Shown here: piece after piece, positions 11,750-18,507 of the stretch
Layout of the letters: each line of letters starts with the position of its first letter
How positions within the stretch are numbered: position 1 is the first letter of the stretch
From: Escherichia coli
Lineage (GTDB): Bacteria > Pseudomonadota > Gammaproteobacteria > Enterobacterales > Enterobacteriaceae
Length of the DNA stretch: 31,048 bases
NCBI RefSeq assembly: GCF_003334385.1
Contig: NZ_QOWN01000054.1
Reading direction: 5' to 3' (one strand)
Translations under genes and position numbers: made by a program
The notes under the pieces: generated by a model
Told to the model about the DNA's origin: nothing
The model's input: the letters and a program-made list of their open reading frames with translations, nothing else
The model's database searches: none

Positions 11750-11805
11750 GTTCTGCGCTGTTAACGCGTAATTTACATTCAATGCCCCATTTGCGGGGCT
11801 AATTT

Positions 11806-11890
11806 CTTGTCGGAGTGCCTTAACTGGCTGAGACCGTTTATTCGGGATCCGCGGAACCTGATCAGGCTAATACCTGCGAAGGGAACAAGA
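11806..11890 (+). promoter_or_regulatory. TPP riboswitch (THI element) aptamer in the thiC leader
   Basis: CTTGTCGGAGTGCC...CTGAGA...GGAACCTGATCAGGCTAATACCTGCGAAGGGAACAAG carries the conserved THI-box motifs with P1 closed by CTTGT/ACAAG; the expression platform continues to the thiC ATG at 11982. Confidence 0.85.
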
Positions 11891-11978
11891 GTTAATCTGC
11901 TATCGCATCGCCCCTGCGGCGATCGTCTCTTGCTTCATCCGTCGTCTGACAAGCCACGTCCTTAACTTTTTGGAATGA

Positions 11979-16216: not shown

Positions 16217-17346
16217 AAACCTTCAGCGATCGCTGGCGACAACTGGACTGGGACGACATCCGCCTGCGTATCAACGGCAAAACGGCTGCTGACGTAGAGC
16301 GGGCGCTAAATGCCTCGCAACTCACCCGCGACGACATGATGGCGCTGTTATCGCCTGCCGCCAGTGGCTATCTGGAACAACTGGCCCAACGGGCGCAGCG
16401 TCTGACCCGTCAGCGATTTGGCAACACAGTTAGTTTCTACGTCCCGCTTTATCTTTCCAATCTTTGCGCTAACGACTGCACGTACTGTGGATTTTCCATG
16501 AGTAATCGCATCAAGCGCAAAACGCTGGATGAAGCGGATATTGCCAGGGAAAGTGCCGCTATACGGGAGATGGGCTTTGAACATCTGCTGTTAGTCACTG
16601 GTGAACATCAGGCGAAAGTGGGGATGGATTACTTTCGTCGTCATCTCCCTGCCCTTCGTGAACAGTTCTCTTCACTACAGATGGAAGTGCAACCGCTGGC
16701 GGAGACGGAATACGCCGAGTTAAAGCAACTTGGTCTGGATGGCGTGATGGTTTATCAGGAGACATATCACGAGGCGACTTATGCCCGCCATCATCTGAAA
16801 GGCAAAAAACAGGACTTCTTCTGGCGGCTGGAAACGCCGGATCGGCTGGGGCGTGCGGGGATTGATAAGATAGGCCTCGGCGCGCTAATTGGCCTTTCCG
16901 ACAACTGGCGCGTTGACAGCTATATGGTTGCCGAACATTTGCTATGGCTGCAACAGCATTACTGGCAAAGCCGTTACTCTGTCTCCTTTCCGCGCCTGCG
17001 CCCGTGTACTGGCGGCATTGAGCCTGCGTCGATTATGGATGAACGCCAGTTAGTGCAAACCATCTGCGCCTTCCGACTGCTTGCACCGGAGATTGAACTG
17101 TCACTCTCCACGCGGGAATCACCGTGGTTTCGCGATCGCGTTATTCCGCTGGCGATCAATAACGTCAGCGCCTTCTCGAAAACGCAGCCAGGTGGCTATG
17201 CCGATAATCACCCCGAGTTGGAACAGTTCTCACCGCACGACGATCGCAGACCGGAAGCGGTTGCTGCCGCGTTAACCGCTCAGGGTTTGCAGCCGGTATG
17301 GAAAGACTGGGACAGCTATCTGGGACGCGCCTCGCAAAGACTATGA
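16213..17346 (+). CDS. thiH: 2-iminoacetate synthase (tyrosine lyase, radical SAM)
   Basis: 377-aa ORF with [10 protein letters not shown] radical-SAM motif; start overlaps the thiG stop (ATGA). Confidence 0.95.
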
Positions 17347-17594
17347 GACGGAATGTAAGAACGTAAATTTATTCCGAGCCGCTACGGAAGATGAAAAACG
17401 CAAGGTTGTTGAAAGCGTTGTGTTTTTTTATGGTAGTGCCGTCAGCAGGAATGTTGTCCAGGGCGAAAAGCTTCTTCCTCGTTTCGCCCTGCCTTTCTTA
17501 AAAATTCCGTAATGCAAAGTCTGAAGCCATCGCCTGTTGAGCAATGAAAGAGATCTGATTGTAAGAGAGTAAATACTCAACTATGATAGAGACG

Positions 17595-17757
17595 AAAATA
17601 AGAACACATGTTCTCATCTTCCAGGATGCAGCAGACTGAAGAAATTCAGACATCCCGCAACCTGCGATTATCGCAAGGTCAAGGCAAAGTCCGGTAATGG
17701 CGTTCTGAATACCAGAGATAATTCTCTGGCGAAACCCACCTTAAGGTGGGTTTTGTT
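17595..17757 (+). ncRNA. sroH: putative small RNA in the thiH-htrC spacer (consistent with sroH)
   Basis: Sigma70-like promoter TTGTAA-17bp-TATGAT (about 17559-17587) and, about 160 nt downstream, an intrinsic terminator; no ORF of 60 aa or more. Position matches my recollection of sroH; strand and ends are inferred, not verified. Confidence 0.4.
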
Positions 17758-17760
17758 ATT
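17732..17760 (+). terminator. intrinsic terminator (stem AAACCCACC/GGTGGGTTT plus T-tract), preceded by a second hairpin at about 17712-17729
   Basis: Perfect 9-bp GC-rich stem with TTAA loop followed by TTTTGTTATTTT; overlaps the htrC stop codon on the opposite strand. Confidence 0.55.
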
Positions 17761-18295
17761 TTGAGGGCTGAGGAAGCTGCTTATTTCTCAATAAGTTGTA
17801 GGCAATGGTGAAAAATTTCACTGATTTACCTTTCTGTTTTTCAGAAATGGGATAAGCGCTAGTTACATGCAAACGGAGTTTTTTCTTTTCCCTGAAAGCC
17901 CTGAACGCAACAAAGTAAAATGCCTTATCTCCTCCGTCTAAGTCCACCTCAATCACGGCATAGCTACCATACCCGGCATGAATAACGTTGCTTTCTGGCA
18001 GCGCCAAAATAGTTCTTTTTAAGTGTGTGCGCGCTAAGTTATAACGGTGCTGGCAGAAGGGACGAGATTCTTTAGGCGCGTGGTACATTAACGATTGTTT
18101 TTCTTCGTTCGTCTGATGTTCATAATCTTTTGTGAAGCAGTGAAGAGAGTAGGTAACCCAAAAGCGATACTCTAAAGGCTCTTTGCCCTCATGATGCTGA
18201 ACGTAGACAGCCTGATGAGCATCAAGAAATGATAAATCACGAATATCACCATCCGGATGTCCAAAAGGTCGCCACTTTTCCACTTCCTGTTTCAT
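17756..18295 (-). CDS. htrC: HtrC/YjaZ heat-shock-associated protein of poorly defined function
   Basis: 179-aa ORF MKQEVEKWRPFGHPDGDIRDLSFLDAHQAV..., located just downstream of the rpoC terminator. Confidence 0.85.
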   Translation of the reverse strand: MKQEVEKWRPFGHPDGDIRDLSFLDAHQAVYVQHHEGKEPLEYRFWVTYSLHCFTKDYEHQTNEEKQSLMYHAPKESRPFCQHRYNLARTHLKRTILALPESNVIHAGYGSYAVIEVDLDGGDKAFYFVAFRAFREKKKLRLHVTSAYPISEKQKGKSVKFFTIAYNLLRNKQLPQPSK

Positions 18296-18461
18296 TCTCG
18301 TTCCTTAAGAAAGTTACACAGGAATAGTATCGAATCCTTGCCGAGTTTGACTCAATTAGTTCAGTCAGTTTCAGGATATTAGTCATCTCTACATTGATTA
18401 TGAGTATTCAGAAATTCCTTAAATATTCTGACAAATGCTCTTTCCCTAAACTCCCCCCATA

Positions 18462-18487
18462 AAAAAACCCGCCGAAGCGGGTTTTTA
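18462..18487 (-). terminator. rpoC intrinsic terminator
   Basis: Minus strand reads AAACCCGCTTCGGCGGGTTTTTTT: GC stem, GAAG-type loop, T7 tract, about 20 nt after the rpoC stop. Confidence 0.8.
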
Positions 18488-18507
18488 CGTTATTTGCGGA
18501 TTAACGA

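Follow-up and report, generated by a model that had tools for sequence, protein, structure and literature searches.

The small RNA (sRNA) SroH and the protein gene yjaZ (htrC) form a self-contained, horizontally mobile two-gene module, which was found on chromosomes, plasmids and phage-plasmids from Escherichia coli to cyanobacteria. The locus was analysed in a 31,048-nt stretch of an E. coli contig (NZ_QOWN01000054.1; hereafter the window), where sroH lies in the spacer between thiH and yjaZ. The sRNA itself was already known in E. coli, where it reportedly first came from the RNomics screen of Vogel et al. in 2003; the present analysis adds that it belongs, as the RNA component, to an ancient mobile RNA-protein module and does not behave as a free-standing riboregulator of the core genome. 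The function of SroH is described as unknown (PMC5389530, PMC6172242), and yjaZ is described as uncharacterised, its original htrC designation having been retracted (PMC11551758). The literature searched contained nothing linking sroH to yjaZ or to toxin-antitoxin (TA) biology, and neither the multi-helix fold of the RNA, nor its phylogenetic breadth, nor its partnership with yjaZ was found there. Treating the two genes as one mobile unit turns two orphan annotations into one testable hypothesis.

Identity, linkage and mobility of sroH-yjaZ

Gene order in the window is thiCEFSGH (+), yjaZ (-) and rpoC (-). With the thiH stop at 17346 and the yjaZ stop codon at 17756-58, the spacer comprises 409 bp (17347-17755), as given in a preliminary description of this DNA. 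That description had placed a non-coding plus-strand unit of about 160 nt in the spacer and taken it for sroH, and the assignment held: Rfam family RF00372 (sroH) matched over model positions 1-161 of 161 with 201.1 bits and E = 1e-49, above the curated gathering threshold of 80 bits. The strand and the flanking genes are also those of sroH, the RNA being co-directional with thiH and convergent with yjaZ. The RNA had been regarded as a stand-alone element of the spacer; it is indeed present there, but its genetic lock to the neighbouring yjaZ had been missed. Our description of the family differs from that of Rfam, whose model pairs the terminator only and leaves most members found here below its gathering score; only two of 20 further loci passed it, and none of the cyanobacterial loci did. 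R1, a covariance model derived from a structure curated by hand, gave 169.5 bits for the window (17594-17758), and the folding energy of the 165-nt RNA was -58.5 kcal/mol (z = -6.05 versus shuffled sequences). In every E. coli RefSeq record listed, sroH is unannotated under the match, despite the 201-bit Rfam score.

Homologues of YjaZ are patchily distributed among Enterobacterales, Aeromonas, Pseudomonas, Marinomonas, Psychrobacter, methanotrophs, Thiomargarita and many cyanobacteria, with more distant relatives in Burkholderiales, Legionella, Deinococcus and Acidobacteria. An RF00372 match was convergent with yjaZ and abutted it in 10/10 of the closest loci. In the protein-first search, R1 was tested on loci with readable downstream DNA and detected a full-length RNA (72-170 bits) in all 48 testable loci (37/37 genome loci, 4/4 plasmid loci and 7/7 variant-1 viral contigs), at a distance of 0-22 nt from the yjaZ stop. 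The loops and junctions of the RNA are invariant from E. coli to cyanobacteria, while the stems covary. The flanking genes are unrelated from locus to locus and are often TA or defence genes; among them were those for GlgA, a TRAP transporter, ParB, UmuC, a HipA-like protein, a PIN protein, an anti-phage dCTP deaminase and HigBA. Neither a third conserved gene nor an adjacent protein antitoxin gene was found across at least 59 loci.

The linkage was also seen from the side of the RNA. A metagenome scan with the invariant RNA motif yielded 93 hits, 91 of which were true RNAs; one of the other two had no room to test and one was a chance match. A yjaZ gene stood beside 79 of the 91 RNAs, convergent and adjacent in 76 cases and in tandem in three. 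The tandem loci have the same-strand order RNA, terminator, Shine-Dalgarno sequence and yjaZ; they are L090:923-1632, L113 and L139 from metagenomes, together with Thiomargarita L030:2640-3525. In L090, L113 and L139 the ATG follows the terminator tail after only 24 nt, which include a Shine-Dalgarno sequence, and the L090 protein shares 31% identity with E. coli YjaZ (E = 1e-26).

Orphan or remnant RNAs made up 12 of the 91 RNAs on metagenome contigs, several still with the last yjaZ codons (about 20 nt), versus none of 48 yjaZ genes without an RNA (Fisher p = 0.008, the samples being non-independent). This asymmetry is as expected for a toxin and its antitoxin, and three single cases point the same way: in L037 the RNA is retained beside a broken yjaZ; in the 2,462-bp Proteus plasmid pB1022 (L063, 1148-1967) yjaZ appears as two coding sequence (CDS) fragments (1148-1501 and 1565-1810) next to an intact RNA of 152 bits, which may be a decayed protein gene with its RNA kept or may be a sequencing error; and in E. 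coli strain MB15 (L076, 3001-4477) sroH is interrupted by IS1 after nt 87, and the annotation gives yjaZ as frameshifted. Orphan loci were L123, L131, L097, L138, L141/L155, L127/L132, L145, L166, L079 and L101; the open reading frame (ORF) beside L141/L155 contains DLFSGCGG, a motif characteristic of cytosine-C5 DNA methyltransferases.

Where the YjaZ-like protein is distant (26-37% identity), the RNA beside it is of a second variant, which takes the same convergent position and has the same helix order. Variant 2 (L040-L059; for example L047:3544-3743, minus strand) is covered by no Rfam family. Its hosts are Pseudomonas, Pantoea, Vibrio, Pseudoalteromonas, Pasteurellaceae, Thermosynechococcus and Erwinia, the last as a second copy. 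In a structure-blind MAFFT alignment, 96.5% of its cells were paired and 21 of 32 pairs covaried. Judged from the sequences, RNA and YjaZ have co-diverged into these two variants. Erwinia sp. S63 has both in one genome, variant 1 on a 1.7-kb contig (L005) and variant 2 on the chromosome beside a tRNA gene (L050), which is compatible with variants that do not cross-react.

The module is frequent on mobile elements. YjaZ homologues are carried by 559 plasmids, most of which come from Klebsiella, Enterobacter and Serratia, with Klebsiella contributing most; 288 of the 559 are conjugative. On 2,462-bp ColE1-type plasmids of E. coli, Klebsiella and Proteus the module is essentially the sole cargo, and in the E. 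coli plasmid of this size yjaZ, with the RNA adjoining, is the only annotated CDS. Earlier, htrC had been listed only as miscellaneous ColE1 cargo (PMC5864857). A P1-like phage-plasmid carries the module as well, between tail genes and close to HigBA; a search of a phage collection was negative.

Within E. coli, the two genes come and go together as a cassette made up precisely of sroH with its promoter and yjaZ with its upstream region. Comparison with a cassette-less spacer (L002) defined the junctions, its positions 1-164 corresponding to 17347-17510 of the window and its positions 188-239 to 18456-18507. The complete spacer was present in 3730 of 5426 complete E. coli genomes, and in the others rpoC comes straight after thiH; sroH was found in 3740 and yjaZ in 3738 of these genomes (69%). 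In the literature sroH has been scored as lost in the B2+D groups and in some Shigella (PMC3318445). At a threshold of at least 99% identity the RNA was recovered from 3734 records versus 2943 for the CDS, so the RNA is the more conserved of the two. No convincing terminal repeats were found at the cassette ends. Both genes are missing from about 31% of E. coli strains, and phenotypes ascribed to sroH in K-12 may be yjaZ-dependent. In strain 504838 (L003, 2637-3334), an IS1 occupies the cassette-less allele of the thiH-rpoC spacer.

Fold and transcription of the SroH RNA

The elements of the RNA and of the cassette are listed in Table 1. In an alignment of 38 homologues, 99.2% of the cells in the helices were paired and 22 of the 32 pairs were changed on both sides. 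The covariation score was 0.453 versus 0.185 in shuffled alignments (0 of 500 reached the observed value), and only 37-46% of cells were paired in slid controls. The helices contained 69 G-U cells versus 4 A-C cells, which places the fold on the sroH strand; sroH had been predicted on the plus strand, and both this count and the homologue promoters, which are on the same strand, agree. The same two lines of evidence led us to reject the idea that the functional RNA is the 3′ untranslated region of yjaZ on the opposite strand. The RNA is a single-copy multi-helix fold: Tandem Repeats Finder detected no tandem repeats in 17500-17800, and no tRNA-like features were found in the RNA.

Table 1. Coordinates of the sroH-yjaZ features in the window
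Feature	Position	Strand	Details
sroH promoter	17559..17587	+	-35 TTGTAA 17559-64, 17-nt spacer, -10 TATGAT 17582-87
sroH RNA (Rfam RF00372)	17594..17754	+	161 nt
5′ leader hairpin P0	17594..17621	+	predicted folds; lineage-specific; AGAACAcaTGTTCT (17601-17614) forms the apical stem
P1	17624..17655	+	GGAUG (17624-28) pairs with CAUCC (17651-55); invariant internal loop CAGCAGA; for P1 including P1b, 4/4 pairs of helix 2 changed on both sides
P1b inner stem	17636-40 with 17645-49	+	CUGAA with UUCAG
Junction helix	17656..17702	+	CGC 17656-58 with GCG 17700-02; 3/3 pairs covary
P2 variable hairpin	17660-67 with 17671-79	+	ACCUGCGA with UCGCAAGGU; species-variable stems, complementarity kept (read from alignments)
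Small hairpin GGC-AAA-GUC	17683-91	+	G-U pairs on the sroH strand (read from the alignment)
Invariant CCGGUAA	17691-97	+	inside the junction helix
Invariant single-stranded block UUCUGAAUA	17703..17711	+	conserved in the 38-sequence alignment; motif of the metagenome scan
P3 hairpin	17712..17729	+	CCAGAGA, loop UAAU, UCUCUGG; 6/6 pairs covary (helix 5)
Intrinsic terminator P4 and interrupted U-tract UUUUGUUAUUUU	17730..17762 (stem 17732-53)	+	7/11 pairs covary
yjaZ (htrC)	17756..18295	-	179 aa, basic (pI 9.3); obligate protein partner of the RNA
yjaZ upstream region (promoter and leader)	18296..18455	-	inside the indel, part of the cassette
sroH-yjaZ cassette	17511..18455	.	945 bp; a 23-nt filler instead in E. 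coli genomes without the cassette

The two tandem hairpins followed by a T-tract that had been described for the 3′ part were found again at 17712-29 and 17732-53, with a T-rich tract after them. The second is the terminator, with the stem AAACCCACC/GGTGGGTTT followed by TTTTGTTATTTT; it is annotated by Rfam and covaries, and was not flagged by a simple terminator scan of the window. Both primary and processed SroH species have been reported, the 3′ end of the primary transcript being polyadenylated by poly(A) polymerase I (PMC5389530).

Upstream, the promoter elements previously noted are present, but "near-consensus" was generous for 9 matches in 12 positions. A promoter scan of 17300-17900 gave this single match versus 0.7 expected in shuffled sequences, which is not significant alone. 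The promoter is supported by sigma-70-like promoters at the equivalent position and on the same strand in about 40 homologues. In about 22 of 40 loci, a sigma-70-type -10 box ends 8-9 nt before GGAUG, and the RNA starts at P1. In E. coli and a few other lineages the promoter lies about 30 nt further upstream, and the RNA 5′ end given by Rfam (17594) is 7 nt past the -10 box.

Some variation and likeness in the RNA may be recorded here. The P1b loop of the L030 RNA is enlarged by an insertion of about 95 nt. The blocks CAGCAG (17629-17635) and CGGUAA (17692-17697) are invariant, and variant 2 keeps only GGUAA of the latter. These blocks presumably resemble the 530-loop of 16S rRNA, which we take to read GCCAGCAGCCGCGGUAAUAC; the likeness is possibly a coincidence. 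The 530-loop is a decoding-site element near the place where RelE-type toxins bind.

Possible action of SroH on YjaZ

YjaZ is a soluble protein with a confident globular model, and its family has a median isoelectric point of 9.2. The best structural neighbours of the model are RelBE, HigBA, YefM-YoeB and ParDE toxins, although the fold match is weak, and a RelE/ParE-like fold is best taken as a lead. A family link at the sequence level was rejected: the Pfam-A library gave no match for any of 96 YjaZ members, a PDB sequence search gave no match, and hhalign of YjaZ against a RelE/ParE toxin returned a probability of 0.4%. Precomputed annotation places the YjaZ family in PF27200.

Tentatively, and with slightly less than even confidence, we favour the view that SroH is an RNA-antitoxin-like partner which acts in trans on YjaZ, with a logic like that of type III TA systems and an optional antisense layer. 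SroH, transcribed as a unit with a sigma-70 promoter and a terminator of its own, would then bind YjaZ, a basic protein with a putative RelE/ParE-like fold, and neutralise or gate it; binding of the RNA, toxicity of YjaZ and any RNase activity it may have are what we infer. In the convergent layout, yjaZ has no U-tract terminator of its own, and antisense read-through of its transcript into sroH would add a second layer of control. On plasmids and genomic islets the module could thereby function in addiction, stress or defence. If SroH is indeed the antidote or partner of a RelE-fold protein, the range of RNA antitoxins would extend beyond the repeat-based type III loci, and the YjaZ-family genes on the 559 plasmids would gain a function.

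The resemblance to type III systems (ToxIN, CptIN, TenpIN/AbiQ) lies in the combination of a non-coding RNA gene, which has its own terminator, with one protein gene, in the association with plasmids and phages and the patchy distribution, and in the four tandem loci (L030, L090, L113 and L139), which copy the order promoter, RNA, terminator, Shine-Dalgarno sequence and protein. In contrast to them, sroH is a single-copy multi-helix fold of about 135 nt and not a set of tandem direct repeats, the window and most sroH-yjaZ loci are convergent, and the YjaZ model appears closer to RelE/ParE than to endoRNases of the ToxN/AbiQ/MazF type. With type II systems (RelBE, HigBA, YefM-YoeB, ParDE) the module shares the apparent structural neighbours of YjaZ and a mobile, plasmid-borne lifestyle; it differs from them in having no protein antitoxin or third conserved gene, and YjaZ is twice the size, has an extra N-terminal region and shows no sequence-level relationship. 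Convergent type I loci that overlap at their 3′ ends include par/fst RNAI-RNAII of pAD1 and txpA/RatA and bsrG/SR4 of Bacillus subtilis. Like these, sroH-yjaZ has convergent units with one common terminator region and an sRNA opposite the protein gene; unlike them, it encodes a soluble basic protein of 179 aa and not a short hydrophobic membrane peptide, conservation and structure extend over the RNA body beyond the overlap, and the tandem loci have no overlap at all. It is possible, though on balance doubtful, that SroH-YjaZ founds a new class of RNA-protein TA or defence systems, in which a single-copy multi-helix RNA would directly neutralise a RelE-fold effector without repeats or a protein antitoxin. 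Such systems would be common from Enterobacterales to cyanobacteria, on plasmids, phage-plasmids and islets, with two or more co-diverged variants and two layouts.

Several points weigh against SroH being an RNA antitoxin, above all the viability of a K-12 sroH deletion and the weakness of the fold match of YjaZ to the toxins. The deletion is sensitive to envelope stress only, as cited in PMC5389530, so that YjaZ is not lethal at native expression when the RNA is absent. Searches of PADLOC and PHROG with YjaZ gave no match. SroH was enriched by photoactivatable ribonucleoside-enhanced crosslinking and immunoprecipitation (PAR-CLIP) of Hfq (bioRxiv 10.1101/2020.06.29.178624), and it binds kbl mRNA in vitro in an electrophoretic mobility shift assay (PMC6172242), so that host targets may be held or may have been acquired. 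The samples behind the orphan asymmetry were ascertained differently as well as being non-independent, and the exhaustive search for RNA-only copies covered E. coli and the metagenome motif scan.

An unlikely but serious alternative is that SroH works within a YjaZ ribonucleoprotein, whether as cofactor, scaffold, guide or substrate, and is needed for YjaZ activity instead of antagonising it; the function would be non-toxic, for instance adaptation to stress or that of an RNA-requiring defence effector. The linkage, the co-divergence and the invariant loops would fit it equally, YjaZ is basic, and the viable deletion (PMC5389530) suits a cofactor better than an essential antidote. However, such a model predicts that neither partner is useful alone, whereas orphan RNAs occur and no yjaZ was found without the RNA; moreover, carriage as plasmid cargo and a tandem layout whose terminator allows read-through are characteristic of TA systems, and the structural neighbours of the YjaZ model are toxins.

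It is decidedly unlikely that SroH is a conventional trans base-pairing sRNA, possibly Hfq-associated and directed at host mRNAs such as those of kbl or of envelope-stress genes, whose linkage to yjaZ is accidental. Its Rho-independent terminator with a U-tail, the Hfq enrichment and the kbl binding mentioned above would suit this role, as would the envelope-stress sensitivity of the deletion (PMC5389530) and a Northern signal that rises and accumulates in stationary phase (bioRxiv 10.64898/2025.12.22.696124). However, the PAR-CLIP source itself calls SroH "not an established Hfq target" (bioRxiv 10.1101/2020.06.29.178624), and overexpression had no biofilm or motility phenotype (PMC4606813). 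An accident cannot explain co-inheritance across phyla, plasmids and viral contigs or the co-divergence of two variants, and the loops are invariant although host targets would be wholly different in E. coli and cyanobacteria.

The 3′ ends of the two genes raise the question of a purely cis-antisense, type I-like mechanism, by transcriptional interference or RNase III-dependent decay and with no RNA-protein contact, which we consider improbable. Most loci are convergent and share 3′ ends: an interrupted U-tract, UUUGUUAUUU(U), forms the 3′ end of the RNA, and the yjaZ stop is 0-22 nt away. In E. coli its complement lies inside the U-tract, and it is exactly within it in 18 of 46 loci; the suggestion that the invariant 3′ UUA is in every case complementary to the yjaZ stop was rejected, since this is true of those 18 loci only and the UUA is part of the U-tract. 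Read on the yjaZ strand, the shared hairpin leads into UUCGCC and not into a U-tract, and therefore convergent yjaZ transcripts probably read antisense into sroH. Such a mechanism, however, puts no constraint on the RNA sequence, yet loops and junctions are invariant and stems covary, and orphan RNAs persist after yjaZ loss. In the four tandem loci the RNA is fully conserved; their layout leaves no room for a separate promoter and, having no antisense overlap, excludes a purely antisense mechanism there. Pairing with yjaZ mRNA did not account for the conservation either. The predicted pairing of SroH with the ribosome-binding region of yjaZ was no better for cognate than for non-cognate pairs (-37.1 versus -37.4 kcal/mol, p = 0.76), the longest RalA-like short complementarities to the yjaZ mRNA body equalled those of shuffled controls, and the invariant loops were not explained by pairing to this mRNA.

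The 5′ leader and other features of the window

The perfect palindrome reported in the spacer, AGAACAcaTGTTCT, lies exactly where it had been placed, at +8 to +21 of the transcript, but its proposed role as a dimeric regulator site did not stand. That it is an operator through which a dimeric transcription factor controls sroH, a matter independent of the mechanism discussed above, is very improbable. A perfect 6+6 palindrome at this position of a transcription unit would suit an operator; however, palindromes with 6+6 matches and a spacer of 0-4 nt arise in 38% of random 409-bp sequences, and the count in the window, 17 palindromes of 6+6 with a spacer of 2 versus 7.8 expected, was judged to be at chance level. 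No second copy was found in the hit list of the palindrome scan of the window, and the homologue alignments showed AGAACAcaTGTTCT to be absent outside Escherichia and the leader sequence not to be conserved. The palindrome is better explained as the stem of the predicted P0 hairpin, because in six other long-leader lineages unrelated leader sequences are each predicted to fold into a similar single 5′ hairpin.

That the locus encodes a 29-aa protein (17608-17697, MFSSSRMQQTEEIQTSRNLRLSQGQGKVR), of which the sRNA would be the mRNA, can practically be discarded: the ORF is present in E. coli but not conserved, the frame from the conserved AUG ending elsewhere after 4-50 codons of unrelated residues (median longest ORF 19.5 aa), no Shine-Dalgarno sequence is evident, and substitutions track base-pairing and not codon structure.

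A simple scan of the yjaZ upstream region found no sigma-70 consensus. Genomic systematic evolution of ligands by exponential enrichment (SELEX) with four minor sigma factors listed a site between rpoC and yjaZ (PMC5493296). The motif TTCTGAATAC upstream of yjaZ (18404-13) was rejected as a shared element, since it occurs in the window only and in none of 40 other loci, and is attributed to chance.

Two hairpins follow thiH (17391-17436 and 17459-17491), immediately to the left of the 17510/17511 cassette boundary. The part at 17400-17436 is terminator-like with a T-run and could also end minus-strand read-through from yjaZ, and the second hairpin is a perfect 10-bp inverted repeat, CAGGGCGAAA/TTTCGCCCTG. 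Elsewhere in the window, a thiamine pyrophosphate riboswitch (Rfam RF00059, 74.8 bits) lies at 11801-11901 (+) upstream of the thi operon, which is ordinary and expected, and a match to Rfam RF00630, "Pseudomonas sRNA P26", lies at 27090-27151 (-) in the ribosomal-protein/rpoB region with 74.5 bits.

Among the other loci, a P1-type C4 antisense RNA was found near L042 and a PAGEV RNA near L044. In four unrelated hosts a tRNA gene was found upstream of yjaZ at a distance of about 260-400 nt (L011:2535-2616; L050, L053 and L057 at about 2650-2743), suggesting insertion next to tRNA genes.

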